The notes below the pieces were generated by a model, which saw only the letters and a list, made by a program, of their open reading frames with translations, was not told the DNA's origin and ran no database searches. Below, one piece after another: positions 1,144 to 57,556 of a stretch of 64,000 nucleotides of DNA. Location of the stretch: contig JAWOCD010000040.1 in the NCBI GenBank assembly GCA_046483985.1, positions 56,409 to 120,408 of the forward strand. Reading direction: 5' to 3'. How positions within the stretch are numbered: position 1 is the stretch's first letter; every line of letters begins with the position of its first letter. The DNA is from Promethearchaeia archaeon. GTDB lineage: Archaea > Asgardarchaeota > Lokiarchaeia > Sigyniarchaeales > SOKP01. The position numbers and the translations under genes were made by a program.

Positions 1144-2076
1144 TTATTCGCCTTTGATAATTTTCTCTAGATAAGGGAAAAATCTGGTGTAATGGACTGC
1201 CATGCAATGGATACCGTCAATTAAATCCTTGCTTTTGAGCTCTGTAATAAATGGTTTAAAGTGCTTATAGTTCAGTTCGTCGTACATCTCCCTCTTCTTC
1301 TCTTTATTGGGGGCATTTTTCTTTACGTCTTTCCAACTCGCAAGGACCTCTTTTGGAACATCTACTCCAGGCACAAACATATCAAAACCTTTTGCAATAC
1401 CATAAGATTTCATCGGAAAAATTCCAAGCATTATCGGCACATCATATTTTTTAATTTCTTTTAAAAATTCGATGGTTTTGTCGATATCATAGACAACTTG
1501 TGTTTGAAAGAATTCTGCTCCTGCTTTTGCCTTTCTCTTGATTTTAAGCACTTCAGACATCATCGGATCTGCATTTGGATTCGCAGCCGCACCAACATGA
1601 AGAGTGGGTGGATGTTCGATTTCTTCTCCATTTATCTTCCCAGTATCAACCATTTCTCTTACCATCTGAACAAGAGTAGCGGAATCTAAATCAAATACGG
1701 GTTTACATTCCGGCATATCTCCCATTGCAGGATGATCTCCGGTAAGTGACAGTACATTCCGAATTCCTAATGCATGTGCTCCCATAATCATTCCAGCAAT
1801 GCCTAATCTATTACAATCTCGTACAGTTAATTGCCATACACATTCCAAACCCGTCTCATCTTGGATAATTTTTGTAGCTGCCATCGAATTAATGGTGACA
1901 ATGCCCAGCGGACTGTCGGTGACGTTCGCGGCAGTCACATATGGAGCCATTTCCTTTGCCTCTTCTACTGTATGGGAAAGATCGCATGTTTTCTCAGGTT
2001 CAAGTTCTCCAGTTAACACAAAATCTCCACTAGCTAATTTTTCTCCTAATTTTGAATATATTTTCTTATCTGACAT
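1144..2076 (-). CDS. metF: Methylenetetrahydrofolate reductase catalytic subunit (copy 1)
   Basis: GELEP, NVTD, 'RDCNR', 'LSLTGD', 'KAKAGAEFFQTQ' and 'GIHCM' MTHFR motifs; directly downstream of metV. Confidence 0.9.
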   Translation of the reverse strand: MSDKKIYSKLGEKLASGDFVLTGELEPEKTCDLSHTVEEAKEMAPYVTAANVTDSPLGIVTINSMAATKIIQDETGLECVWQLTVRDCNRLGIAGMIMGAHALGIRNVLSLTGDHPAMGDMPECKPVFDLDSATLVQMVREMVDTGKINGEEIEHPPTLHVGAAANPNADPMMSEVLKIKRKAKAGAEFFQTQVVYDIDKTIEFLKEIKKYDVPIMLGIFPMKSYGIAKGFDMFVPGVDVPKEVLASWKDVKKNAPNKEKKREMYDELNYKHFKPFITELKSKDLIDGIHCMAVHYTRFFPYLEKIIKGE

Positions 2077-2091
2077 TTGTCTAATTCACCT

Positions 2092-2772
2092 CTATCTAAA
2101 TACAACCTCTTGCTGGTGCCCAGTATCTGACCAGTCTCGAGGTTCTCGTAGTTTTTCGAATAAATCTAACCTTCCTAAGGCTTTTAACCGCTCGAAAATT
2201 AGGACCCAGCCGCAATCTCGTTCGTAATCGTCCACTTCACACTTTCCTTCCACCATACCGCCGCATGGACCATTCATAAGTCCTTTTGCGCACGTAGTAA
2301 TAGGGCAGATGCCTCCCGTATAATTTAACAAACAGTCTCCGCAAGCTCCACACCGTTTATAAAAACGTCCGATTCGCTTAGTTTCCCCAATAAATTCTGT
2401 GTTATTGGTAATCAATACGGGAACATCAGCATAATCGGAATGTCTCTTCTGAAGCACATGGGTAATACTGGCAACCCCCAATCCGCAACTTAACGTAAGA
2501 ACCGCATCCATCTCAGGTAATATATCTCTGACCTTTCGAAGGTCTTTCATCATCACCCGATTGTCACAAACATCTTCGGCAACGATGGTGGTTAATACTT
2601 CATAGCCTTTTTCAGTGAGTTTTTCCTCCCACTCTTCAGCACCTTCGGTACCGCCAGTCTGGCAGAGTGCGGCACAAGTCCCGCAACTGACCAACAAAAT
2701 CTTTTCTACGCCAAAATCTTCTAGCGCTTCAAAAACCTCTTCTTTAGGTTTTTTCGTGGTAATAACTACCAT
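2092..2772 (-). CDS. metV: MetV-type Fe-S/Zn subunit of MTHFR (copy 1)
   Basis: 'CGTCAALC', 'CGACGDC...GGICPITTCAKGLMNGPCGG...CEV...CGW' Cys pattern; 15 nt upstream of metF. Confidence 0.88.
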   Translation of the reverse strand: MVVITTKKPKEEVFEALEDFGVEKILLVSCGTCAALCQTGGTEGAEEWEEKLTEKGYEVLTTIVAEDVCDNRVMMKDLRKVRDILPEMDAVLTLSCGLGVASITHVLQKRHSDYADVPVLITNNTEFIGETKRIGRFYKRCGACGDCLLNYTGGICPITTCAKGLMNGPCGGMVEGKCEVDDYERDCGWVLIFERLKALGRLDLFEKLREPRDWSDTGHQQEVVFR

Positions 2773-3263
2773 TTTTATTATACCTCTTTAAGTTATTTAA
2801 TTATTTATGATAACATTTATTTTGTAGTTAGGAAAATTAATGAGAGAAATTAAGGTTAATCCTTACATATCATAAGTGAAATTATAGTAGAGCGATCTTG
2901 TCATCGTGAACATTTTCGCTTTTCAGATATACTTTCTCTTGATTATTGACGAAAATGATAGTTTGAGAGGCTTTTTTATGTCATTTTCAACAAAAGCATA
3001 AATCGAATATGAAAAGTTATAATATTTTTTGAATTGAAGAAAAATTTGGGTATTGTTCAATCAGATCAAAATAAAGACGAATAGGAATTAATGATTGATG
3101 AATAATTAATAAAAAATTCAATACTCCTAAAAAGCTAGATTGAGATTTATAGATTCAAATCGATAATTTTAAATCCTAATGTCTATTATTTCTATGTGAG
3201 TCTTAATAATAAAACGATAAAGGAATACACAAAGAATTGGTGATTTAAATAGCTGTAACTTAC

Positions 3264-4946
3264 ATGAAGAAGCTGGAAGAAGAACCAAGATCATATAAAT
3301 CCCAGTTTACGCAATTAACAAAAGGTATAAACTTAAAAGCTCAAGAATGGATTTTATCGAAGGTCGATACCAACCAATCGATTCTGGAAGCGGGTTGTGG
3401 AACGGGTTTATTAGCACATAAACTAGCCCTTAAAGGAAATACGGTGAGGGCAATAGACAAGAACCCCAAAATGATAGAATTTGCTTCGGACAAATATCAG
3501 CAAGATAAGGAGAACAATCTTACATATCAAGTTGCTTCTATTGAAGATTTACCAGTTGATCAAAGATCACAAGATATCATCATCAGTACCTTTATGCTTT
3601 CGGAATTAAGGCCATTTGAACAGCAAACTTTTCTTCGGAACGCTTGGAAGGCTCTAAAAGAGGGGGGGAAACTAATCCTTGCTTCAGAATTTATAGCCTC
3701 AGGTATATGGAAATTGGGCTTCAAGTTAAAAAGATGGAGATATAAAAAAAAATTAGAACGCCTTAAACTCCCCGCCACTCATCCCTTGGAAAATTTTTAC
3801 CAGTATTTAGAACCAATAGGGTTTAAAATTCTTAACGAAACCAAATGGAATCACGGCACTATCCATGTACTTGAATTACAGAAGACAATTAGAGGAGATC
3901 TGGATCAGAACGATGAGGAAGGATTATCTAAAAATAAACCAGGGTACTATCGTCCAGAATCCCTTAAATTTAAGGGATTAAGTTCACAGTTAAAAATCTA
4001 CCGGTGTCTTTTTACGGGACAAATAGATAATGTGCCGATAGAACCTGGAATTTATCAATCTGGCAATCCTGATAAGGAATCACCAATCATAGTTACGGCA
4101 AACTATTACTACACCTATGCAAAGGTTATGCGCAACTTAGAAGGGATTGATGCTTGGGTTTTATGTGTTGATACAAATGGAATTAATGTGTGGTGTGCCG
4201 CTCGAGGGGGAGACTTCGGTAATCAGCAATTATTAGAAGCGATAAACGCCACCAATATTCAAGACCTAACAGACTCTCGTACCCTGATACTCCCTCAATT
4301 AGCCGCGGGAGGGGTTGCGTTACCCAAACTTCCTGAAGATCCAAAAGATTTTCCATTTTCCGTAGAATATGGTCCGATATGGTCCAAATATCTAAAAGAG
4401 TATCTCAAACAAGAAGGGGGGCAGAGAAAGACTCCCGAAATGAAACGAGCAAAATTTACGCTTTCCCATAGAATCAGGGCGGGAGTGACCCATACCACCT
4501 TTCTATTCCGAAAAATCTTTGCAAAACCTCTGATAGTGATTTTTTTGGCTCTTTTCCTCCTTAACTACTTTAATTTTATAAATAGATTATGGTGGATGGG
4601 GGACCTCATTTTATGGCTTTTAATCCCCAATTTACTCATTCCAATCATATATCCCCTTTCCCAATTTACAAGAAAATTTATCTTTAAGGGAACCTTATTT
4701 GGTACTATAAATATCTTCCTCTCGGGTTTTATCTCATGGGTAATGTATGGATCCTTACTGTATTCTGCACTTAATTCCATACTTTTTTTCTGGATAACTT
4801 TCTTCAGTACAATGTCCTTTAGCGGTTATACGATGTCAACAAACCCCCGAAAAATTCAAGAGGAATACTCAACATTCCGTAAAATCAACGTTATTTTACT
4901 GTTATCAGCGATAATATTAACATTTTTAAGTTTAGTATTTATTTAA
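3264..4946 (+). CDS. hgcA: HgcA-like corrinoid protein with N-terminal class I SAM-methyltransferase domain and C-terminal transmembrane domain
   Basis: N-terminal 'ILEAGCGTG' SAM motif I; central 'EPGIYQSGNPDKESPIIVTANY...LCVDTNGINVWCAARGG...LILPQLAAGGV...YGP' (CdhD/HgcA corrinoid domain with cap-helix NVWCAA); about 5 TM helices ending 'FSGYTMSTNPRKIQEE'; followed by an hgcB-like gene. Confidence 0.82.
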   Translation: MKKLEEEPRSYKSQFTQLTKGINLKAQEWILSKVDTNQSILEAGCGTGLLAHKLALKGNTVRAIDKNPKMIEFASDKYQQDKENNLTYQVASIEDLPVDQRSQDIIISTFMLSELRPFEQQTFLRNAWKALKEGGKLILASEFIASGIWKLGFKLKRWRYKKKLERLKLPATHPLENFYQYLEPIGFKILNETKWNHGTIHVLELQKTIRGDLDQNDEEGLSKNKPGYYRPESLKFKGLSSQLKIYRCLFTGQIDNVPIEPGIYQSGNPDKESPIIVTANYYYTYAKVMRNLEGIDAWVLCVDTNGINVWCAARGGDFGNQQLLEAINATNIQDLTDSRTLILPQLAAGGVALPKLPEDPKDFPFSVEYGPIWSKYLKEYLKQEGGQRKTPEMKRAKFTLSHRIRAGVTHTTFLFRKIFAKPLIVIFLALFLLNYFNFINRLWWMGDLILWLLIPNLLIPIIYPLSQFTRKFIFKGTLFGTINIFLSGFISWVMYGSLLYSALNSILFFWITFFSTMSFSGYTMSTNPRKIQEEYSTFRKINVILLLSAIILTFLSLVFI

Positions 4947-5006
4947 TTAATGGAAATATCTAAAAGAAAGAAATAGAATATAATAATTAAAGAAAAATGG
5001 AAGTGT

Positions 5007-5354
5007 TTGAATGATATGATTCGAAATACAATAAATGACAAAGAGAATTCTAGTTGTTGTTCGTCTCCTAATATGGGAAATATTATGGGGGCACTTGATA
5101 TTCCGGTTTTTATTGATCCGTCAAAATGTGTAGGATGCGGTTTTTGTGAAGAATTATGCCCCTTTGGGCTTCCCAAAAATGACGGAAAGGGAAAATATTA
5201 TGTGGAGGCCCCCGAAGAATGTGTTGAGTGCAGTGCATGTCAGCGAAACTGTCCTGCAGATGCAATCATCTTGGAGGAACAAAAAGGATGTGGGTGTTTA
5301 TGGGATGCAAAAAACCGAATAAAGGAAAAGAATAATACATCTAAATGCTGTTAA
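5007..5354 (+). CDS. hgcB: HgcB-like 2x[4Fe-4S] ferredoxin
   Basis: CxxCxxCxxxCP twice (CVGCGFCEELCP; CVECSACQRNCP), 'GCGC' and terminal 'CC'; immediately downstream of the hgcA-like gene. Exact start uncertain. Confidence 0.8.
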   Translation: MNDMIRNTINDKENSSCCSSPNMGNIMGALDIPVFIDPSKCVGCGFCEELCPFGLPKNDGKGKYYVEAPEECVECSACQRNCPADAIILEEQKGCGCLWDAKNRIKEKNNTSKCC

Positions 5355-5380
5355 CATAATGAGATTTCTCATAAAAATTC

Positions 5381-5565
5381 TCATTTGGATTCTTGTATAG
5401 CAAACTTGCAAAACGCAATTTGATCTTCCAAGAACTCAATAAACCTTTTCTTTTCGTCAGATTTCTCAACAGATTCTAACTTACTCAGTATTTCCTCTAG
5501 TTTTTGGACTACTCGTTTATTTTTAACAGGATTTTTCTTATCTCTTTATTTTTATCATTTGTCAT
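5381..5565 (-). pseudogene. Small helical protein gene with an apparent 1-nt frameshift
   Basis: GGTGAG SD then ATG at 5565 gives MTNDKNKEIRKILLKINE*; another frame continues VQKLEEILSKLE...FAIQESK* to 5381. Span 185 nt, one short of a multiple of 3. Confidence 0.4.
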
Positions 5566-5567
5566 TT

Positions 5568-6299
5568 TTACTCACCATATGATGATTCTGCCATTCGCTC
5601 TGCCAATTCTTCTTTCAATTCTCGAATAAATCGGTTTAGTTCTTCACTTTGAGAAAGAAATTCTTCATTATGCAGCCCATTTATTAAAGAGAGAATATGA
5701 ATTATGCCAGAAACCTCCTTATCACATGTGTGCCCGAACCGAGGTGCTCTGCATTCATGGCAGACACGGAGAGCAAAATCTTGGAGAGTTTCAACATCCA
5801 ACTTCTTATTTTGTATAAACTTAGCACCTGCCTCTGAAGAGCCACAAGGAGAAACTCGTCTAATTTTTATAAACTTTACATCTCCATTATTATCTACTTT
5901 AAGATCAAAATTAGGTTTTCCGAATTTCTCAGCAAAAGCGTCAATCTCTTGAATCCGCATATTGGGTTCTAATGAACACATTGTGCGCGGACCGATTGAT
6001 TTTGAATTTATATCTTTTACTTGCCTTAATAGACCTCTCCCAGGAGTTATCCCTAATATTAATGGTTTTTGAAGTTCTGCGATTTCTAATATGATATCTG
6101 GGTGCCTAACATACACAACATATAAGTCACATTCTGGGATTTTTAAATCTAATCCATCATCAAGCATAATATTCGGTGAAATATCGGGAACTTCAATCCA
6201 GTTAGTGGAAAAAAATCTCTTAAAGTTTTCATAAGCTCTTTCCCCATATTTTCCATCTGTAATTAACCCAATAGTTATGACTCTATCTTCTTCATTCAT
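5568..6299 (-). CDS. DUF166-family protein
   Basis: 'DGKYGERA', 'HPD', 'P..MCSL', 'FGKP', 'RVSPCGS' and a C-terminal Cys/His pattern typical of archaeal DUF166. Confidence 0.65.
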   Translation of the reverse strand: MNEEDRVITIGLITDGKYGERAYENFKRFFSTNWIEVPDISPNIMLDDGLDLKIPECDLYVVYVRHPDIILEIAELQKPLILGITPGRGLLRQVKDINSKSIGPRTMCSLEPNMRIQEIDAFAEKFGKPNFDLKVDNNGDVKFIKIRRVSPCGSSEAGAKFIQNKKLDVETLQDFALRVCHECRAPRFGHTCDKEVSGIIHILSLINGLHNEEFLSQSEELNRFIRELKEELAERMAESSYGE

Positions 6300-6342
6300 T
6301 GTTTAAGCTCTGAGAAAAGGATTTAGATCAAAAATAAATTAG

Positions 6343-6762
6343 TTATTTTGTCCCATAGAGCTCGTCAACTTTTTGAGAGATCTCTTCCGCTATAATTTTT
6401 GCTAATTTCAAACCTTTATCTCCTAAGCGTCTTGAACTATCTGGAATTAATTCTGGGTGGGCATCCATAAATTCTTTAACATTAACCATCGCCGCGGGTT
6501 TTCCACTATATTTATCTACGGCAACCCTTGCACATTCCTCTTCACAGCCTTCTACAGTAATGGTTGGATGATTCTTAGCAAAATCTCTCTCTTCTTGGCC
6601 TCCATGTCTTTCCAAACCCCCAGCCATAAAGAGTGGTTGGCATAAAATGATTGTTCGATTGGGACGTAATTCTTCAACGACCATTCTTGCAGCCGCTCTT
6701 GTTAAGGTACCCCCAACTAAATCTTCTCCACTACAAGCGATAATCCCTACTTTTTTTTTCAA
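6343..6762 (-). CDS. DGC-domain (putative Zn/metal-binding) protein
   Basis: 'IIACSG...C...TVEGCEEECA'; start placed at TTG 6762 after GGAGGAGG SD rather than 6801. Confidence 0.75.
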   Translation of the reverse strand: MKKKVGIIACSGEDLVGGTLTRAAARMVVEELRPNRTIILCQPLFMAGGLERHGGQEERDFAKNHPTITVEGCEEECARVAVDKYSGKPAAMVNVKEFMDAHPELIPDSSRRLGDKGLKLAKIIAEEISQKVDELYGTK

Positions 6763-6763
6763 C

Positions 6764-7186
6764 TTAATCCTCCTCCTTCTCATTATTATGAAGTAATTCA
6801 TCTACTTTAGTAGCTATTTTTTCGGCAAGTTTTTTTGATAATTTTTTTGTATTTTCGCCAATGGGTATAATTTTTTGTTCTGGTTTAAGATCTCGATTCT
6901 CTTTTACCACATCTGTGGTCATAAATTGAGCGTCCACCTTACCAGTAGCTTTTTTGAGGTCGTTAAATGAGCATTTTAGAGGGCATCCATCAACCGAAAT
7001 TACATAATTTTCTTTCATTTTTTTGATTGTTTCGTCTTTCCCCTTAACAATCAATGGTAAACATTCGATTTCTGCTTTTTTTTTAGCCAATTCATCCACA
7101 ACAATATAAGCCGCTTCTCTGCCAATGCTACCAAAAACTTTCCCTATTCCACTACAAGGTATAATATATACTTTTTTCTTATTCAT
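6764..7186 (-). CDS. DGC-domain protein
   Basis: 'IIPCSGIGK...CLP...SVDGCPLKCS' DGC signature. Confidence 0.82.
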   Translation of the reverse strand: MNKKKVYIIPCSGIGKVFGSIGREAAYIVVDELAKKKAEIECLPLIVKGKDETIKKMKENYVISVDGCPLKCSFNDLKKATGKVDAQFMTTDVVKENRDLKPEQKIIPIGENTKKLSKKLAEKIATKVDELLHNNEKEED

Positions 7187-7197
7187 TTCACATACAT

Positions 7198-8073
7198 CTA
7201 TTCTTTTTTATGATGATTTTTTTCCTTTTCCGCTTTATCTTTCATATATTTAAAATAATCTGGACCATCCATCAAAAATTCCTTATCTTCTTCAAAATTT
7301 TCTAATTTTATTTCGGCAAACCACCCTTTTTGATAAGCATCTTTATTCAATAATTCGGGTTGGTCATTTAAGTTGTGATTAATATTTATAATCTCTCCAG
7401 AGGCAGGAGAAATAAGCTGCAGAACCGTTTTTGTAGATTCAAAATTCCCTACGTCATCAAATTGTTCAATCTTTTTACCTTTTTCTGGAAGATCAACAAA
7501 TAAGATATCACCAGCACTATTTTGTAAATAGTCCGAAATTCCAAGAAGTGCAGTATCTCCTACTGGTTTTACCCAACAATCGTTCTCATTAAAATAGTAT
7601 CCCGATTTTGGGACTCGAAATCTGTATTTATCGATAACCGTTTCAAAATAGTTAATTTCATCAAATTCTCTTTCTTTGCCTTCAATTTTCTCCTTAGGCT
7701 CTGTTAATTCGTCCATGATATATTTAGAAATTTTTTCTACTAATTTTTCTCCTTCTTCAGTTAAAGTTAAATCCTTACCAGGTTTCATCTTAAATTTTTT
7801 CAACATCTCCGGTATTGAAACTCTTAAAACAATATTGGATTGAATATTCTTAACTAATTTGGTTGCACAACGTGTCATACATCCATCGATAATTATGACT
7901 TTATAGTTAGTTACCATTTCTTCATATTTTTCGTTTCCCGAATTCAATGATACCGGACAAATAATTTTGATATTATCTTCCATTTCATTGAGTTTTAAGG
8001 CGACTTCTCTTGCGACTACGCCAAGAATCTTATCTAATCCATTACACGGCAAAACACATAGTTTTTCTTTCAT
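7198..8073 (-). CDS. DGC domain fused to a glycine-cleavage-H-like lipoyl domain
   Basis: N-terminal 'LPCNG...ICP...IIDGCMTRCA'; C-terminal 'WVK...LGISDYLQ...GDILFVDLP...FESTKT...SPASGEI...N..L..QPELLNKDAY..GW' with the lipoyl-acceptor Lys (ESTK) retained. Confidence 0.85.
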   Translation of the reverse strand: MKEKLCVLPCNGLDKILGVVAREVALKLNEMEDNIKIICPVSLNSGNEKYEEMVTNYKVIIIDGCMTRCATKLVKNIQSNIVLRVSIPEMLKKFKMKPGKDLTLTEEGEKLVEKISKYIMDELTEPKEKIEGKEREFDEINYFETVIDKYRFRVPKSGYYFNENDCWVKPVGDTALLGISDYLQNSAGDILFVDLPEKGKKIEQFDDVGNFESTKTVLQLISPASGEIININHNLNDQPELLNKDAYQKGWFAEIKLENFEEDKEFLMDGPDYFKYMKDKAEKEKNHHKKE

Positions 8074-8092
8074 AAAGACACCCTAAAATTTT

Positions 8093-8389
8093 TTATTTCC
8101 CTCTAATCTTTTTAATCTGAGCCTTAACGTCTTTTTTATCTGGAAAAGAAAGTGCGTCCAAAGGACATGCTTTTGAACACGCTCGACAAAACACAACACA
8201 ATTATGGGGATGTTTAACAATTAATTTTTTTTCCTCGCTTTCTATTTTTTCAAAGACATCATGCGGACAAAATTCAGTACAATCCATACAAAAATCGCAC
8301 TTATCATAGTCTATTGTTGGATGCCATTCAATTTTATTTCGTGGGACTCCCATAAATGTTTCTTTATTTGAATCATATCCCTTACTCAT
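8093..8389 (-). CDS. 4Fe-4S dicluster ferredoxin
   Basis: CDFCMDCTEFCP and CVVFCRACSKACP; start probably the Met at 8389, overlapping the upstream gene's stop. Confidence 0.85.
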   Translation of the reverse strand: MSKGYDSNKETFMGVPRNKIEWHPTIDYDKCDFCMDCTEFCPHDVFEKIESEEKKLIVKHPHNCVVFCRACSKACPLDALSFPDKKDVKAQIKKIRGK

Positions 8390-8777
8390 TATTCTCATCC
8401 TCCTTGATTTCTTTTAATGTTTTTTCTACTAAATCCACGGCTTCTTGAGTTGTCATTTCTCTTATATCTAGAGGGACTAGATCTTCTTTAACATCTAATC
8501 CCGCCTTTTTAAATGCGTCCTTGAATAGTTTATATTGCATGGTTGCAGCACATCCAGCAACCATATATTTTTTTCCAGCTTTTAGAAAATCATCCCAAAA
8601 CCTATCGCCATCTTCCTCACATAATTGTGGGTGGATAAATCCGTATTCCACGGGTAATTCAATTCGAACTTGGTTAATGAAATCCCAAATATCCATCTTG
8701 GCAAAACCAGGACATTTTCCCGTGCAGACACACATTATAAATCCAATCTTTTTTTCTTCTTGTGCTTCTGAACTCAT
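8382..8777 (-). CDS. Stand-alone HdrA N-terminal-like Cys domain protein
   Basis: 'KIGFIMCVC...LC...MVAGC...LFKDAFKKAGL...DIRE' aligns by eye with 'RIGVFVCEC...YSC...VVAAC...LFQKTIREAGL...SIRE' inside HdrA (22294..25830). Confidence 0.75.
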   Translation of the reverse strand: MSSEAQEEKKIGFIMCVCTGKCPGFAKMDIWDFINQVRIELPVEYGFIHPQLCEEDGDRFWDDFLKAGKKYMVAGCAATMQYKLFKDAFKKAGLDVKEDLVPLDIREMTTQEAVDLVEKTLKEIKEDENNE

Positions 8778-8964: not shown

Positions 8965-9288
8965 ATGGATCTAAAACCACTAAAAATAAAAACATTAAAA
9001 GCATTATCGGATGAAACAAGATTAGAGATAATAAGTCTTCTACGTCATGGTGAGGAGCTTTGTGGATGTGAGCTCGAAAAGGTAATTGATAAATCCCAAT
9101 CGACAATCTCCAGACATTTAAAGAAACTTGAAGAGGCAGATTTGGTCGAAAGGCGAAGAGAAGGAGTTAAAGTACTTTATAGAATTAAAGATCCTAAGAT
9201 ATACAAATTACTAGCTGTTCTTAATAATTTAATAAAAAGGAACAATAAATTTAAAAAAATCGTAGAACTTCAAAAAGAAATAAAATAA
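8965..9288 (+). CDS. ArsR/SmtB-family metalloregulator
   Basis: 'KALSDETRLEII...ELCGCEL...SQSTISRHLKKL...G...Y'; ELCxC alpha3 metal site. Confidence 0.92.
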   Translation: MDLKPLKIKTLKALSDETRLEIISLLRHGEELCGCELEKVIDKSQSTISRHLKKLEEADLVERRREGVKVLYRIKDPKIYKLLAVLNNLIKRNNKFKKIVELQKEIK

Positions 9289-9300
9289 ACAAAAGGTGGA

Positions 9301-9582
9301 ATGATTAAATTGAAAGAAAATGAGAAATTAAAGATCGATATTTATGTGCCATTAAATGTTTGCTCGTGCCAATGGGAGGGTTTTATGAACTCTATATTTG
9401 CAGAGCTTAAAAAATACAAGGAGCATATTGATTTCCAAACAAAAAATCTTAAATCTGAAGAAGCAAGGAAATTAAATTTGCATGGAAATAGTGTAGTTAT
9501 TAATGATGAGGAAGTCGTTAAATCTTCGTTTAATCTCAAGAGAAAATTACCGAAAATCTTAGAAGAAAAGGGCTTGATTTAA
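9301..9582 (+). CDS. Small thioredoxin-fold-like protein with CxC motif
   Basis: 'KIDIYVPLNVCSCQW...SVVINDE'; in the arsR operon. Confidence 0.5.
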   Translation: MIKLKENEKLKIDIYVPLNVCSCQWEGFMNSIFAELKKYKEHIDFQTKNLKSEEARKLNLHGNSVVINDEEVVKSSFNLKRKLPKILEEKGLI

Positions 9583-9584
9583 AG

Positions 9585-10046
9585 TTGAATGAACACAAAA
9601 AAAGTCTTGATAATATAGTTTTAATTCCTTGTTCTGGGTCTGAATATAATGGGGAATTAGCCCGCCAAGTAGCTATTAGATTAAATGACGAGGGAGTTAT
9701 TTCCAAAAATAGTTCTATGTTATGTTCGACTACATTTTTAAAAAACATCTTGCTCGAAAAACAATCCTTGGTGGATATCACAAAAAATAATCTTAAATCA
9801 AGTTTTCTTATTGTAATAGAGGGATGTAAAAGTTCGTGTAAAAGTCTTATCCTTAAACAATTAGGGATAAACCCCGATATGATTTTTCACGTAGATCAAA
9901 TTGTACCCAAAGAAAGATTAAATCTGAGTGATCTTGAGGTCTTTAAAAACCGTCCTCGACTCAGTAATATTAAAAAAGACGATATCTCAAAAATGGTTGA
10001 TTATATTATAAAGAGTCTAAAAGAAAAGGGATATAATCTTAATTAA
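9585..10046 (+). CDS. DGC-domain protein
   Basis: 'LIPCSGSEYNGELARQVA...C...VIEGCKSSC'. Confidence 0.75.
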   Translation: MNEHKKSLDNIVLIPCSGSEYNGELARQVAIRLNDEGVISKNSSMLCSTTFLKNILLEKQSLVDITKNNLKSSFLIVIEGCKSSCKSLILKQLGINPDMIFHVDQIVPKERLNLSDLEVFKNRPRLSNIKKDDISKMVDYIIKSLKEKGYNLN

Positions 10047-10134: not shown

Positions 10135-10785
10135 TTGGAAGTCAATTTTTTAGTAGCTTTTTTAGCAGGATTAGTAATCGGAGCAACACCTTGTATTTTG
10201 TTAATGCTTAGTGCTTTTGGATCCTCTTTAATATTAAGGGGAGAACGAAAAAATTTCATTAATATTTCCCTCGGTTTATTGTCAGGTTTTGTACTTGGAT
10301 ATATATTTATTTCCATTATCTTTTTATTTTTTGTGCCAATGTTTGAGATGCTCTATTATTTCAAATATATATTTGCGGGAATCTTGATTTTTATAGGAAT
10401 TTGGCAAATTCTTGATTATAAAAATGAGGACAGCAGAGTTTTTAGTACACCCCAAAAGGTAAAATCAGTATTGAAAAATTTTATTAAAAAAAGAACAGGG
10501 ACTTATGCGCTTTTAGTTGGAATCATATTTGTCTTTATTAAAATGCCTTGTTTTGGCGGTGTATATTTGTCCCTTCTTTATAATCTGCATAAAAACCCTC
10601 TTCTTTATGTATTTATAATGTGGTATATAATAGGTATGTTAATGCCTATCACTCTGATCTTGATTTTACTCCGATTAGGTTTAAAATATAAAAAAATTAA
10701 TAATTTCAGATTAAAATATCGGCCATATTTGAGGTTATTAAGTGGAGGAGTTTTAGTATTTCTTGCAATCTATTTACTGATATAG
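10135..10785 (+). CDS. CcdA/DsbD-family transmembrane thiol-redox protein
   Basis: About 6 TM helices with 'TPC' and 'MPC' membrane cysteines. Confidence 0.8.
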   Translation: MEVNFLVAFLAGLVIGATPCILLMLSAFGSSLILRGERKNFINISLGLLSGFVLGYIFISIIFLFFVPMFEMLYYFKYIFAGILIFIGIWQILDYKNEDSRVFSTPQKVKSVLKNFIKKRTGTYALLVGIIFVFIKMPCFGGVYLSLLYNLHKNPLLYVFIMWYIIGMLMPITLILILLRLGLKYKKINNFRLKYRPYLRLLSGGVLVFLAIYLLI

Positions 10786-10786
10786 G

Positions 10787-10818
10787 TTGAACTATTCACG
10801 CCTAAAGGCGTGAGATAC
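10787..10818 (-). mobile_element. Solo IS200/IS605 right-end hairpin
   Basis: TTGAACTATTCACGCC-TAAA-GGCGTGAGAT, a close match to the right end of the tnpB remnant at 45611-45640. Confidence 0.65.
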
Positions 10819-10961
10819 ATATACACTATTGGGTGATCATTACATTTATTTTTCTAATTTTGATTCTGGACCATATAAATCTCAAAGGTTTATTAAACTC
10901 GTGGACACAATTTATAATTAGTAGAAACTTAATTGAATAATCTAATTTTGAGGAGAAGATC

Positions 10962-13900
10962 ATGCTTTCCGAAGACACAATAATATTGTTCGGAATTACC
11001 CCTGGGGTTACCGAATTCCGAAAAGTTTATAATATGCTCAAGTATTTTATGAAGGAAAAGAAGGAAATCGACTATAATGACAGATTTAACATCATCTTTT
11101 TTACTGGTGAGGGGCCCAAGTATTTTGAGGATTTTACTTTAAATCCCGCTCATCTATTAGAGACCCTTAGTGACTCGAAGTCCGAGATAATAGAGGCGGA
11201 TATTGCGGGGGGTATCTTTATCTCTGCTATGTACGTTGTTGAAGTATTTCAGAAGATCTCGGGGAAGTGCTTTCGAATGATTATTCTTTCCGATTCGGGA
11301 TCAAAAAAAATTCCTGAAAAACAAATGTCCTTTCTCTCCGATTTGTTAGAAAAAATTACGGATATACCATTCATTATGGACGCCGTTCGAATAGATGGGG
11401 ATGACCCCCGAGATGATTTACGATTGATGAAATTAGCGCGACGGACTGGAGGAGATCTTTATGAGATTGACGAAATAGATCAAGAAGCTGCAGAAGCGGA
11501 AACCTCTGCTAAGGAAAAGGAGAAAACGGTAATCGAAATGCTTGGAAAGTTATCCCGAACTCCACTCAATCTTGCCAAGAAACTGAAAAAAGAAGTACAA
11601 GAAGAGGAAATGCAGGAAAAAGAACAATTCAGCGACCTCCAAGATGTCTTAAATCATCTAAAGGGCAAAAAGAAGGTGGAAGCCGAATTATTTGAGGTAA
11701 ATAATATGGAAGATATTCCTCCAAAAAAAAGGGTATTTTATGAGGGATTAGGCGAGCCCCTTCAGCCAGTAGGCGGGGAAGGAAATAAACGGTGCATGAT
11801 CTGCTTCACGTCTTTAAAAAATCAAGAGTTACTAAAGTGCCCCAATTGTAAGAATATTGCACATAAAATCTGCTTTGCCATCTGGGCAAAGAAATCAAAC
11901 ATAGGCATTCCCCACATATTTCGATGTCCTAATTGCTATAGTTTAATTAAAATGGACAGCGATTTAATTAAAAAGGTAAATAGAGTGAAAACGCCCACCA
12001 TTGAGGTGTGTAAGGATCTTGAAAACGTTTGCTTGGAAGAATACTTGGAATCCTTGGAATCTCCCGAAGGACCTAAAGTGATTACCTCAGAGGAAGGGAG
12101 TTTTAGTGAAGTGGAAGAAGAGACGGAAGAAGAATCCAAACAGAAAGTGGAAACGGAAGGAGTATCTAAAAGGGCAGAAACAGATGATAAAGAATTGAAA
12201 ATGATATGGTGTCCCAAGTGTGGAAAGATGATTACCAATGAATATAATCGCTGTCCACAGTGTGGATATAAATTAAGAAAAGTAAAACCGAGCGAAGGGA
12301 GGGAAGCAGCATCACAACGGCAAGAAGAAGCAGAGATTTTATCACAAATTAGTGAACTAAAGGTCAAGGAAAAAAGCGATCTAAAGGCCAAAAATCACAG
12401 GCAAGCAATTCAAAAAGCCCAGAAGATTAGAAAGTTGGCCAAACAGTTGGGAAAAGAAGAAATGGTACAAGAACAAGAAAACTTTATAGAGAAAGTAGAG
12501 GAAGAACGGAACCTTGGAGAGATGAGGAAAGATTACAATAGGAAATTCAGTTATTTAAAGAATAAAGTCAGCAATTTACTTAAACACAATGCCATTTCCA
12601 AAGCCTATCAAGCTGTAGAGGATTTCTCTGTACAAAATGAGGATTTAATTTCATCTCTTGCAACCCCCGAATATGAAAAATTTAAAACAAAGATTACAGA
12701 TCTGTATCAAGGAAAAGGTAAACAAGAGAAGAAAAAGACCAAAACAGGAGGGATAAAACAAGTAAGTAGTCAAGCAACTGAAGAAGATATTTGGGAAAAA
12801 TTGGATGAAAAGGAAGGCGAGATTAAATCAAAGATAGGGGAAATAACAAAATTAAACGAAGCTCGGAAACAAATCTCTCAAAAAGTTGAAAATCACGAAT
12901 ATGATGGAGCCATCAAAATTTTAAACTCCGCGATTGATGACATAAGCAGTCAAGAACTTGCAGAATATAAGAGGAGTTTGCAAGAAAAAAAAGCAAAAAT
13001 TCGGAGAAAAAAGAAAAAGCATAACAACTTGTCCAAAAAAATAACAAAGGAACAAAAGAAATATGAGAAGAATCATAAGAAAGATAATCTTTACGCTGCA
13101 TTAAATTACGCCACGAATGTGAAATTGTTGGCAGGACAATTACAAAACGCTGAACTTAAAGAAAAGTATTCCGAAATTGAGAAAGATCTCGTAGAGGAAA
13201 TAGAGGATCAAAAGGAAAAAGATGTCGTTGAAGGAGACGAATTGGAGGAGGACCTGAAATCCTTGGAAGATACCATTAAGATCGAGTATTTTGACGATGA
13301 CCTTATCCCAATTATAAAAAAATACCATTTAGACGAATTAGAACAGAAACACGCGAACTCGGAAAAGATTATTAAGGTTGCTTCCAAACGTTTAAAAGAA
13401 AATCGTAATAAGATGAAAGAAAAAATAACGCAAGAGCTTATAGTATACTCTTCGAATGGTGAAGTTTTCCAAAAGCAAGCCCAACTCGGAATTGAGAGAA
13501 TAGAAAAGAGCAAAAAAGTCAAAAAGGACGTATTCAAAAAGATCGTAGAGTATAAAATAGAGTATAAGCCCAATTTCTCTGCGAAAAGAATTGAAGATCT
13601 AACAATTCAATTGAAGGTACCCTATCACTTCAAATTAACATCGCTTTTTATTCACGAGCAAGAATTTATCAATTTAGCGATAAAACAACCAACTAAAGGT
13701 GGATTAAAATATTCTTTTATATTGGAGGATTTATCCCTTTCACGGGGATTCTCCATTCATTACCAGTTGGAGAGACATATTTCAAGGATTTTGCTCTTTA
13801 CAAAAAAGAACTATCTGTACATGATCAAGTGCTTTTATAACGTTTCAGTCCCTTCAAGTGAAGCAAGCTCGAAGATTTTATTGCCCTTCGATATTAATGA

Positions 13901-14228
13901 TGCACAGGATTTTAATTGGTTAATCATCGAAGATATATTTCCAATAAATTACAGCCCAGTTATTCTTGAACCAGAAAACTTGGAATGCGCAGAATCCTCT
14001 CTGGACGAAAAGGGAAAATTAGTCGGTTGGATTTTGGAAAATTTATCCGCGGGCACTCACTTATTTCAATATTTATTAGTTTCACCAGAGAAACTCGCAT
14101 TACTAACCAATTATCTTCAGAAAAAGCTTCAAAATGCAGATGCATTTTTACAACACGGGAATCTCATAGGTTTCAAAAAAAATGTGGAGGAGCTCAGTTC
14201 GATCATCCGTAAAGAGCTAAAATCATAA
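10962..14228 (+). CDS. Large vWA-like + C4HC3 (PHD/RING-variant) finger + C4 Zn-ribbon + coiled-coil + beta-rich C-terminal protein
   Basis: vWA-like N-terminus ('DRFNIIFF','FRMIILSD','LMKLARRTGG'); CMIC...CPNCKNIAHKIC..W...CPNC; WCPKC...CPQC; long K/E-rich helical region. Confidence 0.65.
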   Translation: MLSEDTIILFGITPGVTEFRKVYNMLKYFMKEKKEIDYNDRFNIIFFTGEGPKYFEDFTLNPAHLLETLSDSKSEIIEADIAGGIFISAMYVVEVFQKISGKCFRMIILSDSGSKKIPEKQMSFLSDLLEKITDIPFIMDAVRIDGDDPRDDLRLMKLARRTGGDLYEIDEIDQEAAEAETSAKEKEKTVIEMLGKLSRTPLNLAKKLKKEVQEEEMQEKEQFSDLQDVLNHLKGKKKVEAELFEVNNMEDIPPKKRVFYEGLGEPLQPVGGEGNKRCMICFTSLKNQELLKCPNCKNIAHKICFAIWAKKSNIGIPHIFRCPNCYSLIKMDSDLIKKVNRVKTPTIEVCKDLENVCLEEYLESLESPEGPKVITSEEGSFSEVEEETEEESKQKVETEGVSKRAETDDKELKMIWCPKCGKMITNEYNRCPQCGYKLRKVKPSEGREAASQRQEEAEILSQISELKVKEKSDLKAKNHRQAIQKAQKIRKLAKQLGKEEMVQEQENFIEKVEEERNLGEMRKDYNRKFSYLKNKVSNLLKHNAISKAYQAVEDFSVQNEDLISSLATPEYEKFKTKITDLYQGKGKQEKKKTKTGGIKQVSSQATEEDIWEKLDEKEGEIKSKIGEITKLNEARKQISQKVENHEYDGAIKILNSAIDDISSQELAEYKRSLQEKKAKIRRKKKKHNNLSKKITKEQKKYEKNHKKDNLYAALNYATNVKLLAGQLQNAELKEKYSEIEKDLVEEIEDQKEKDVVEGDELEEDLKSLEDTIKIEYFDDDLIPIIKKYHLDELEQKHANSEKIIKVASKRLKENRNKMKEKITQELIVYSSNGEVFQKQAQLGIERIEKSKKVKKDVFKKIVEYKIEYKPNFSAKRIEDLTIQLKVPYHFKLTSLFIHEQEFINLAIKQPTKGGLKYSFILEDLSLSRGFSIHYQLERHISRILLFTKKNYLYMIKCFYNVSVPSSEASSKILLPFDINDAQDFNWLIIEDIFPINYSPVILEPENLECAESSLDEKGKLVGWILENLSAGTHLFQYLLVSPEKLALLTNYLQKKLQNADAFLQHGNLIGFKKNVEELSSIIRKELKS

Positions 14229-56260: not shown

Positions 56261-57556
56261 TTAAATATCTTCGATTTTTACGGCATTTTGTAGGGTTTGT
56301 TTAGCTTTTTCTTGTTCTTGTGACGGCATTTTGCAATTCACATTTAATTTCCAAAACCGGTATTCATGATTTAAATACGCCGGACAAGTTTTTCGTATGT
56401 CTTCTGGGCAATCCATGAGTTGCCAACATTGAAGTTTCTTATCTTCATAAAATTGATGGAATTGTTCGGGTAATTCCTCCCAATTAAACTCAGTTTTTTC
56501 CAAATGATGTTTTAAATCATTTGAATTATAAGTATTCCAAAATAGAACAGTCTTATCCTTATTTTCATCTTCGCGTATAAAATCCAATAAGCCAGCCATG
56601 GCTTTTCCGGTATAGGTTGTTTCTAGCTTAAATCCCATCTCCTTGCCACACAACTCAGTTACTAAATCAACTGCTTTTACGCCTCTTTTCGTTTTAACTC
56701 CATATTCCGAGCCTAAATATCCTTGTAAAATCTCAAAGTCTTCTTCCCTAACGTGAATCTTAGGGATGGAAGGATCTCGTTCTTGGAGGTATTCCAATGC
56801 TTTATTAGAGTTCTTGGCAATTGATTCCGAATTTACGAACATCTCATCACTTACCGCTACCACATGAACTTTTGACTTTAGACCCACTAACTTACACCCG
56901 GCAATTAATCCCGCCGCAGTACCAGTAGATCCTCCAGCTACAAAAATAGCATCGGGTTCGGATGTAATCCCCTCATTAATCTGTGCTTTCAGTTCATAAA
57001 CGGCATTAATAAAAGCGACTGTTCCAAGCGGTGTACCGAATCCTCTTAAATTGGAACCTCCAGGTAAAATTACATAATGTTTTGGATGAAATAATCTGAA
57101 GAATAACGCTTTTAATGCTACTCCGATATAATTTTTAGCATAATGTAATTTTGCGCCGAAGTAATTACCTAATAAAAGCGAGCGTTGCACATGCCAGGTT
57201 AGAGGTTGCTTCGCCAGAAAAAGATGACATTTTAAATCTAATTCCTTACAGATAATGGCAGAAGCAAGGCCGTGATTGGTCCCCACCCCACCAAAAGTCA
57301 TAATACCGGTTTTTCCATTTTGAAGAGCGTCAGCAAAAATAAATTCAAATTTCCGAAGTTTATTGCCCCCATATATATCGTGATCTTTATCATCACGTTT
57401 GATATAAATTTGGGCATTAGAGAGATTTAATTCTTTTTCCAATTCTACTAATCTATCAATTGCCGTTGGTATAATGGTAAGTATTTGAATCCGAGGTACT
57501 TTTTCCTTAAGACCCGGAAATGCTTTAAATAAGGGCAAAACCTGTTGGGAATTCAT
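56261..57556 (-). CDS. PLP-dependent D-cysteine desulfhydrase/ACC deaminase family protein with Cys-rich C-terminal extension
   Basis: 'IYIKRDD...GGNKLRKFEF','GG..TNH','GSTGTAAG','ETTYTGKA'; tail 'CWQLMDC...CPAY...FW....C'. Confidence 0.85.
   Translation of the reverse strand: MNSQQVLPLFKAFPGLKEKVPRIQILTIIPTAIDRLVELEKELNLSNAQIYIKRDDKDHDIYGGNKLRKFEFIFADALQNGKTGIMTFGGVGTNHGLASAIICKELDLKCHLFLAKQPLTWHVQRSLLLGNYFGAKLHYAKNYIGVALKALFFRLFHPKHYVILPGGSNLRGFGTPLGTVAFINAVYELKAQINEGITSEPDAIFVAGGSTGTAAGLIAGCKLVGLKSKVHVVAVSDEMFVNSESIAKNSNKALEYLQERDPSIPKIHVREEDFEILQGYLGSEYGVKTKRGVKAVDLVTELCGKEMGFKLETTYTGKAMAGLLDFIREDENKDKTVLFWNTYNSNDLKHHLEKTEFNWEELPEQFHQFYEDKKLQCWQLMDCPEDIRKTCPAYLNHEYRFWKLNVNCKMPSQEQEKAKQTLQNAVKIEDI

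Follow-up and report, generated by a model that had tools for sequence, protein, structure and literature searches.

What would an HgcA-like corrinoid protein do with a methyltransferase of its own, and what would receive the methyl group? The question is raised by two adjacent genes on contig JAWOCD010000040.1 of a Promethearchaeia archaeon (assembly GCA_046483985.1), within the 64,000-nt stretch of DNA that was analysed here (positions 56,409 to 120,408; hereafter the window). The first gene encodes a class I S-adenosylmethionine (SAM) methyltransferase fused to an HgcA-like corrinoid and membrane protein, and the second encodes an HgcB-like ferredoxin. By sequence, the pair belongs to the CpaM / HgcAB-like / HgcAB superfamily. 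We consider the chances about even that the two genes would form a self-contained, membrane-anchored module that transfers a methyl group from SAM to cobalamin and on to a metal(loid), with As(III) as the most likely acceptor.

A SAM methyltransferase fused to an HgcA-like corrinoid protein

The initial annotation of this DNA had described an uninterrupted open reading frame (ORF) of 560 amino acids (aa) with a SAM methyltransferase, a corrinoid domain with the helix GINVWCAARG and a transmembrane (TM) domain. Translation, domain searches with Pfam and NCBIfam (each scored against the curated NCBIfam cut-offs) and an AlphaFold2 model confirmed this architecture, the parts of which are as follows:

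3264..4946, plus strand: fusion gene, 560 aa, with a CpaM-type SAM methyltransferase, an HgcA-like corrinoid domain and a 5-TM domain (ORF translation, Pfam, NCBIfam, AlphaFold2, Foldseek)
3264..3878 (aa 1-205), plus strand: class I SAM methyltransferase domain of the CpaM lineage (NF043040, invariant residues, methyltransferase tree)
3984..4448 (aa ~241-395), plus strand: corrinoid-binding domain of the CdhD/HgcA type (PF03599, E 5e-16; NF040863, NF043039, alignment with true HgcA)
4179..4208 (aa 306-315), plus strand: cap helix GINVWCAARG (sequence; alignment)
4461..4940 (aa 400-559), plus strand: membrane domain with five TM helices (AlphaFold2 secondary structure; aligns with the TM region of true HgcA)
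5016..5354, plus strand: HgcB-like 2x[4Fe-4S] ferredoxin, 112 aa from ATG, with an alternative TTG at 5007 (translation, NF040864, tail comparison, orthologue)

The fusion gene is one unbroken reading frame with an ATG start. Pfam placed Methyltransf_25/11 at aa 40-139 (E 4e-18) and CdhD (PF03599) at aa 242-348 (E 5e-16), and the NCBIfam model for CpaM (NF043040) covered aa 1-205 with 127.6 bits (cut-off 180), the runner-up methyltransferase family reaching 59.5. The HgcA model (NF040863) covered aa 258-556 with 182.9 bits (cut-off 275), and the fusion scored 179.3 bits (cut-off 285) with the HgcAB-like fusion protein (NF043039), 72.9 bits (cut-off 306) with the large subunit of CFeSP (NF003195), which covered the corrinoid domain alone, and 39.5 bits (cut-off 263) with ArsM (NF008823). 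The SAM motifs are intact: motif I reads GCGTG (G44, G46, G48), the acidic residue is D65, and these positions, together with N308-C311, the ILPQL block and further residues, were invariant in 53 fusions from Archaea and Bacteria. The methyltransferase domain lacks an As-binding Cys triad, because its sole Cys sits in the GCGTG motif. Judged by alignment, Cys311 (4194-4196) is presumed to be the cobalt ligand of the cap helix, equivalent to Cys93 of ND132.

The AlphaFold2 model, built from 53 homologues (pLDDT 86.2, pTM 0.84), contained a Rossmann methyltransferase domain, a low-confidence linker at 213-219, a corrinoid domain and TM helices at 400-435, 443-466, 472-495, 498-520 and 528-559. 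Its top Foldseek match was a published HgcAB model (9a0b_A, E 1e-14), and the fold of the N-terminal domain was nearest to ordinary small-molecule and lipid methyltransferases, including phospholipid N-methyltransferases (8ys9, TMt 0.76). A predicted complex of the methyltransferase (1-215) with the corrinoid/TM part (236-560) gave a median ipSAE of 0.25 against a mark of 0.32, which weighs neither way. Sections of both the fusion gene and hgcB (3285-4099 in pieces, 4924-5092 and 5294-5495) were matched, with 0-4 mismatches, by contigs assembled from RNA libraries of salt lakes (4 runs, 2 studies); this is a weak hint of expression, since DNA carry-over is possible and contigs cannot show a transcript.

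Directly after the fusion, the ferredoxin carries two CxxCxxCxxxCP motifs, an N-terminal SSCC, CVECSAC, GCGC and a C-terminal KCC, and its best NCBIfam match was HgcB (NF040864; 52.3 bits, cut-off 99). It probably starts at ATG 5016 rather than TTG 5007, because the product of a 79%-identical relative has 112 aa. In what follows, MT denotes the methyltransferase, A the HgcA-like corrinoid/TM part and B the ferredoxin, with a hyphen for fused parts and a slash for separate genes. A post-cluster Cys in G(V/C)GC together with a Cys-rich C-terminus ending in CC was found only in window-type ferredoxins and true HgcB; in the tail comparison both features were absent from the fused tails, the MT/A/B ferredoxins and the Anaerolineae ferredoxins. 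The likeness to HgcB proposed in the initial annotation thus extends to the Cys tail typical of true HgcB, whose cysteines were crucial in mutagenesis work as cited in PMC11588087.

Distribution and arrangements of the fusion

A search over 5.8 billion proteins returned more than 1000 matches. The best 120, to which this description applies, were all 545-578 aa long with the same methyltransferase and CdhD architecture, came from metagenome-assembled genomes of Promethearchaeota (Loki), Hod-, Hermod- and Heimdallarchaeota, and were mostly annotated as "methyltransferase domain-containing protein". Within the window's phylum (Asgard), about 80 of 301 sampled genomes held a full-length uninterrupted match. 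The window's own family had a full-length fusion in 47 of 68 genomes (55-63% identity), and full-length fusions were also present in family f2 (50% identity) and in families f24, f9 and f14 (30-35%). The CpaM score of the f24 fusion was 222 bits (cut-off 180), and the same fusion occurred in about 10 of 201 Anaerolineae, where that score was 297 bits. Full-length homologues number in the hundreds, and their shared architecture is far beyond chance. An assembly artefact was rejected, as the same frame was found on many independent contigs and in complete genomes.

The fusion is neither artefactual nor unique, nor is it rare. The partnership of methyltransferase and corrinoid protein already has entries in NCBIfam, under CpaM and HgcAB-like. 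These entries cover part of the family; the window clade lies below their cut-offs and has a different fusion topology. Literature searches found no paper that describes the methyltransferase domain, and "CpaM" gave unrelated acronyms only.

Domain mapping and NCBIfam scoring of related loci gave four arrangements in Asgard: MT-A/B (the window type), MT/A/B, MT/A-B and MT-A-B. MT/A-B corresponds to the pair catalogued in NCBIfam and exceeded both cut-offs, with 250 bits for CpaM and 378 bits for HgcAB-like, as did the MT-A-B triple fusions (CpaM 248-261 bits, HgcAB-like 348-385 bits). The triple fusions are 596-655 aa long and occur in two separate Asgard lineages (loci L028, L029 and L040-L042), and an Anaerolineae version (L156:121-3096) has 991 aa, with ~450 extra residues N-terminal of the methyltransferase domain. 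The association of the three parts is obligate outside true HgcA, and the occurrence of MT, A and B in all these fused and neighbouring combinations speaks for a joint function.

For comparison we used 80 true hgcA loci from named organisms (Methanoregula, Chloroflexota, Syntrophales, Bacillota and others), the HgcA of which was 43-77% identical to an Asgard true HgcA scoring 436 bits; the related-locus search from a 4-sequence alignment had returned true HgcA loci alone. A methyltransferase of any kind lay within 3 kb in only 3 of the 80; none was CpaM, and two were bona fide ArsM (297 and 307 bits). These two arsM genes lie within 2 kb of true hgcAB in two Chloroflexota genomes (L046:5558-6370 and L049:2181-2978; 307 and 297 bits, cut-off 263), and in L049 directly upstream of it.

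Position relative to true HgcA, HgcAB-like proteins and CpaM

In a maximum-likelihood tree of the corrinoid domain (82 rows, 289 columns, LG+C20+F+G4 PMSF, CdhE root), true HgcA was monophyletic (100/100), with a long stem of 1.23 substitutions per site. The HgcAB-like proteins and triple fusions formed a second clade (100/99), joined by the Anaerolineae fusions (91/84), and the MT/A/B forms were basal. Window-type Asgard fusions grouped with true HgcA (99/91), and within this group the sister of true HgcA was a clade of f1, f2 and f9 (95/87). This tree places the window protein outside both the true-HgcA and the HgcAB-like clades. With 182.9 bits against 275 and this position, it is not HgcA in the strict sense, an outcome that had been fixed beforehand as speaking against that name. 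A canonical HgcA that has no methyltransferase is also present in some Asgard genomes (L033, 436 bits). In the tree of Lin et al. (2023; PMC10083202), for which the first 327 columns of the alignment were trimmed off, sequences from Thor- and Lokiarchaeota fell into the "fused HgcAB" subtree.

In a tree of the methyltransferase domain, all 30 corrinoid-associated methyltransferases, the window's included, formed one clade (support 98) that stands apart from ArsM and from the other methyltransferases of the genome. The Asgard fusions branched in the order (f24,(f9,(f2,f1))), as they did in the corrinoid-domain tree, from which it follows that both domains evolved together. Together with the fused and adjacent combinations described above, these matching trees strongly back the earlier proposal that the methyltransferase domain serves the corrinoid domain. 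The annotated change of GK to RG in the cap helix also proved informative: the motif that defines HgcA is N(V/I)WCA(A/G)GK, NVWCAAGK was found in 78 of 80 true HgcA, the window reads NVWCAARG, and GK is missing from every methyltransferase-associated form, which has RG, CG, AG, EA or GG instead. The loss of GK and the Cys tail of the ferredoxin are two independent characters, and both agree with the corrinoid-domain tree.

These relationships are suggestive of true HgcA being nested among methyltransferase-associated forms. We put this forward as a hypothesis because an approximately unbiased (AU) test leaves the alternative standing: a tree constrained to unite all methyltransferase-associated rows to the exclusion of true HgcA was only 6.0 log-likelihood units worse (p 0.306) and was not rejected. 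It is possible, although we lean against it, that canonical HgcAB descends from a CpaM-fused ancestor and that the window-type Asgard clade is its nearest living sister retaining the SAM-loading domain.

Gene neighbourhood and arsenic context

The genes on either side of the module are the following:

1144..2772, minus strand: metF (1144-2076) and metV (2092-2772), divergent from the fusion (PF02219, PF12225)
5568..8777, minus strand: convergent operon of DUF166, DGC, DGC, DGC-GcvH fusion, ferredoxin and a 131-aa ORF (Pfam)
8965..9288, plus strand: ArsR/SmtB regulator with ELCGCEL, first gene of a rightward operon (HTH_5, E 1.7e-16)
9301..9582, plus strand: small CxC protein "c5" with the motif DIYVPLxxCxCxW (relatives' loci; Pfam and NCBIfam without match)
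9585..10046, plus strand: DGC-domain protein in the operon of arsR (PF08859, E 3e-13)
10135..10785, plus strand: membrane protein with two in-membrane Cys, in the operon of arsR (translation)

In relatives, the genes lie in operons with arsR and acr3. We surveyed 20 loci of the window's family with 6-kb flanks and found ArsR at 16, ACR3 at 12, c5 at 12, c6 (a second small protein family) at 11, DUF166 at 6 and ArsC at 3; ArsC was rejected as a conserved neighbour on this count. The ACR3 of related loci scored 274.7 bits with TIGR00832 (cut-off 282.8). The usual order is arsR, [DUF166], arsR, acr3, fusion, hgcB, c5, c6, with acr3 typically directly upstream of the fusion on the same strand and c5 directly following hgcB in 12 of the 20. 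Loci of the sister family f2 also have acr3 and arsR. Among the true hgcA control loci, ArsR was present at 16 of 80, ACR3 at 5 and ArsC at 6. The ArsR of the window carries the As(III)-type motif ELCGC, and no ArsM was found in the window's genome, which is 97% complete. This link matches what has been reported for true hgcAB, which is ArsR-regulated and arsenic-responsive (10.1101/2022.10.17.512643) and often flanked by acr3, arsC and arsM (PMC7438021). The arsenic link is real, yet most of it comes from a single order and part of it is inherited synteny; two different gene arrangements retain it. Arsenic, which the initial annotation had listed among several possible acceptors, gains support from these ars-operon contexts. 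From gene content, the module probably serves an arsenic-handling island, with As(III) a likelier target than mercury.

The closest relative, at 79% identity (L159), has the same island, with an arsR-c5-DGC-x-acr3 operon that ends in an ACR3-type (SBF) gene (L159:15734-16885) and the same order of DGC protein and two-Cys membrane protein. In the window, acr3 is missing from the corresponding place (~10800-10960), and the sole acr3 of the genome stands alone on another contig (C101:104840-105988). After the arsR operon of the window comes a 1088-aa ORF (10962-14228, plus strand), the counterpart of which in a relative has a faint zinc-ribbon match.

The c5 protein is a candidate metal(loid) chaperone, as members of its family follow hgcB or arsR; many relatives have Cys-rich N-terminal tails (e.g., SCCGxSxSCC), and one member in a relative lies at L131:8038-8310. 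The c6 family (L131:8452-8697 and others) consists of proteins of 80-120 aa that often end in QLQPDVGC and have no family match; c6 follows c5 in 11 of the 20 loci, and three distant copies occur elsewhere in the window's genome. The convergent operon at 5568-8777 is likely linked to the module: it also adjoins the fusion in the 79%-identical relative, and DUF166 stands beside the fusion in 6 of the 20 other loci. This operon is tightly packed; the DUF166 of a relative weakly matches the DfsP selenoprotein family, the DGC-GcvH protein carries a lipoyl-carrier domain with no glycine-cleavage partners nearby, and the 131-aa ORF is without a family.

On the other side, metF/metV next to the fusion is kept in L159-L161 and absent from other loci, and metVF was rejected as a conserved partner, being confined to the window's own genus-level lineage. 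In one relative with a MarR context, a gene of the NADPH-dependent FMN reductase fold (FMN_red, the fold of ArsH) lies directly upstream of the fusion (L133:7898-8485); FMN_red is also divergently upstream in the 79%-identical relative (L159:7014-7544) and is not in the window spacer at 2773-3263.

Proposed mechanism and acceptor

For purified true HgcAB, SAM methylates Co(I) (dissociation constant KD 33 uM), methyltetrahydrofolate (Me-THF) does not, and a Cys thiolate is the lower ligand (PMC11588087). By analogy with that system, we infer three chemical steps for the window module. The HgcB-like ferredoxin would bring the Cys-ligated corrinoid in the HgcA-like domain down to Co(I); with SAM bound, the fused class I domain of the CpaM type would methylate this Co(I) to CH3-Co(III); and the methyl group would then move to a thiophilic metal(loid) held by the Cys pairs of the ferredoxin tail (GCGC and the C-terminal CC), for which As(III) would be the most likely candidate.

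Several points weigh against this proposal. A Cys-on corrinoid would be expected to hand on its methyl group as a carbanion, to electrophiles such as Hg(II), and in the ArsM reaction As(III) is methylated by nucleophilic attack on CH3+. The arsenic contexts amount to few independent observations, because the synteny is shared within one family and its sister. In 4 loci of the same family a MarR-FMN_red arrangement replaces the upstream context, and no ars genes were found around the f24 and f9 fusions, bar an ArsR-like helix-turn-helix gene directly upstream in L027. In the window itself, acr3 and arsC are not next to the fusion, and arsR is 3.6 kb off, past the convergent operon. True HgcAB takes its methyl group from SAM without a methyltransferase domain (PMC11588087), so the role of an extra one is not self-evident. 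Finally, P. furiosus and M. methylutens have fused HgcAB-like proteins that showed no Hg methylation (PMC5893877), a result that does not bear on arsenic.

In a rival reading the acceptor is not a metal(loid), and the module would instead methylate a substrate at the membrane, organic or lipid, or work as a corrinoid reductive dehalogenase. The CpaM/HgcAB-like family has no known substrate, f24 loci adjoin a PEMT/ICMT-like membrane methyltransferase and a nitroreductase, phospholipid N-methyltransferases are among the fold neighbours of the methyltransferase domain (8ys9, TMt 0.76), and HgcAB has been reported to dechlorinate CCl4 (bioRxiv 10.64898/2026.04.26.720869). We nevertheless regard this as rather unlikely, in view of the Cys-pair tail that is specific to the window clade and true HgcB, the contexts with ELCGC-type ArsR, acr3, c5 and DGC, and the fact that dehalogenation needs no SAM methyltransferase.

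That same Cys tail, together with the Cys cap helix, five TM helices and the sister position to true HgcA in the best tree (95/87), would also suit a functional mercury methylase, that is, an HgcAB orthologue that kept or gained a SAM-binding helper domain, all the more as true HgcAB uses SAM as donor (PMC11588087). This too is unlikely. The scores with HgcA (182.9 against 275) and HgcB (52.3 against 99) are below cut-off, the protein lies outside the 100/100 clade with a branch of 1.23 substitutions per site in between, the GK of the cap helix is replaced, and some Asgard genomes have a separate canonical HgcA without a methyltransferase (L033). Moreover, no mer or other Hg-related genes were seen in the window locus. 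The module is not a canonical mercury methylase, although it may methylate some Hg(II).

The head-to-head position of metF/metV, in the window and in the 79%-identical relative, invites a different account of the donor, in which the routine methyl group would come as methyl-pterin from MetVF and the methyltransferase domain would be a repair device for reductive reactivation. MetH, with its SAM-binding activation domain for reductive reactivation, is an established precedent, and a ferredoxin partner is available for the one-electron step. The adjacency of metVF is limited to one genus-level lineage, however, no pterin-binding methyltransferase (MeTr/MtrH type) is present in the locus, and Me-THF does not methylate true HgcAB (PMC11588087). 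The association with the methyltransferase is universal across the non-HgcA clades, which fits a main donor better, and we judge a repair role improbable.

Anaerobic demethylation of methylarsenicals is, to our knowledge, still without a known enzyme, and the neighbours of the fusion are of the ars and organoarsenical type (DGC proteins occur in the ND132 organoarsenical operon, and FMN_red is upstream in some loci), so that a demethylase moving methyl groups from methylated arsenicals or methylmercury onto cobalamin could be imagined. We consider this very improbable, as class I SAM methyltransferases serve to donate methyl groups and SAM-dependent Co methylation is effectively irreversible in HgcAB (PMC11588087).

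Implications

Of all the groups compared here, the window clade is the one nearest to true HgcAB. It has a dedicated SAM methyltransferase and a shared metal-binding ferredoxin tail, and it bears on the original job of HgcAB and on why HgcAB uses SAM. If HgcAB does stem from a CpaM-fused ancestor, this would explain why SAM, and not methyl-folate, feeds mercury methylation. In many genomes the window-type fusion is wired into arsenic-resistance operons; on the same premise, the ancestral job of the lineage with the HgcB Cys tail would be methylation of arsenic (or metalloids) in ars operons, and mercury methylation would be derived or a side activity. Should the substrate be arsenic, the module would provide a cobalamin-dependent, ArsM-independent route to methylarsenicals in abundant sediment archaea. 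In addition, surveys that count Asgard hgcA-like genes as mercury methylators may count window-type fusions, which the current cut-offs of the hidden Markov models rightly exclude.

Comparison with known systems

The nearest catalogued system is CpaM ("corrinoid protein-associated methyltransferase") with HgcAB-like (NF043040/NF043039; the "fused HgcAB" of P. furiosus and M. methylutens). It has the same three parts as the window module, a methyltransferase of the same clade and a cap helix that likewise lacks GK. It differs in the fusion partner of A, which is the ferredoxin there and the methyltransferase in the window, where the ferredoxin has a gene of its own. The window fusion also stays below both cut-offs (127.6 against 180 and 179.3 against 285) and outside the 100/99 clade, and its ferredoxin keeps the Cys tail that HgcAB-like fused tails lack.

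Canonical HgcA and HgcB (NF040863/NF040864; P. mercurii ND132) share with the window module NVWCAA with the Cys ligand, five TM helices and a separate ferredoxin gene whose product has CxECxAC, a post-cluster Cys and CC at its C-terminus. For both, SAM is probably where the methyl group comes from, both have ties to ArsR and ars genes, and the two are sisters in the best tree. Canonical HgcA lacks the N-terminal 205-aa methyltransferase domain of the window fusion (CpaM at 0 of 80 loci) and has GK where the window has RG; a long branch separates the clades, and the window proteins score below the cut-offs.

ArsM resembles the window fusion in its class I SAM fold, its ars-operon context and the overall reaction proposed here, As(III) methylation from SAM, but the window domain is without the As-binding Cys triad and its methyl group would travel via cobalamin. 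The large subunit of CFeSP from the Wood-Ljungdahl pathway (CdhE/AcsC) has a homologous corrinoid domain (PF03599; PDB 2h9a, E 3e-9), and the real CdhE of the genome is encoded elsewhere (contig C16). Compared with CdhE/AcsC, the window fusion has no N-terminal [4Fe-4S] domain or TIM barrel, is membrane-anchored and carries a Cys cap helix, and its proposed donor is SAM where that of CdhE/AcsC is methyl-pterin.

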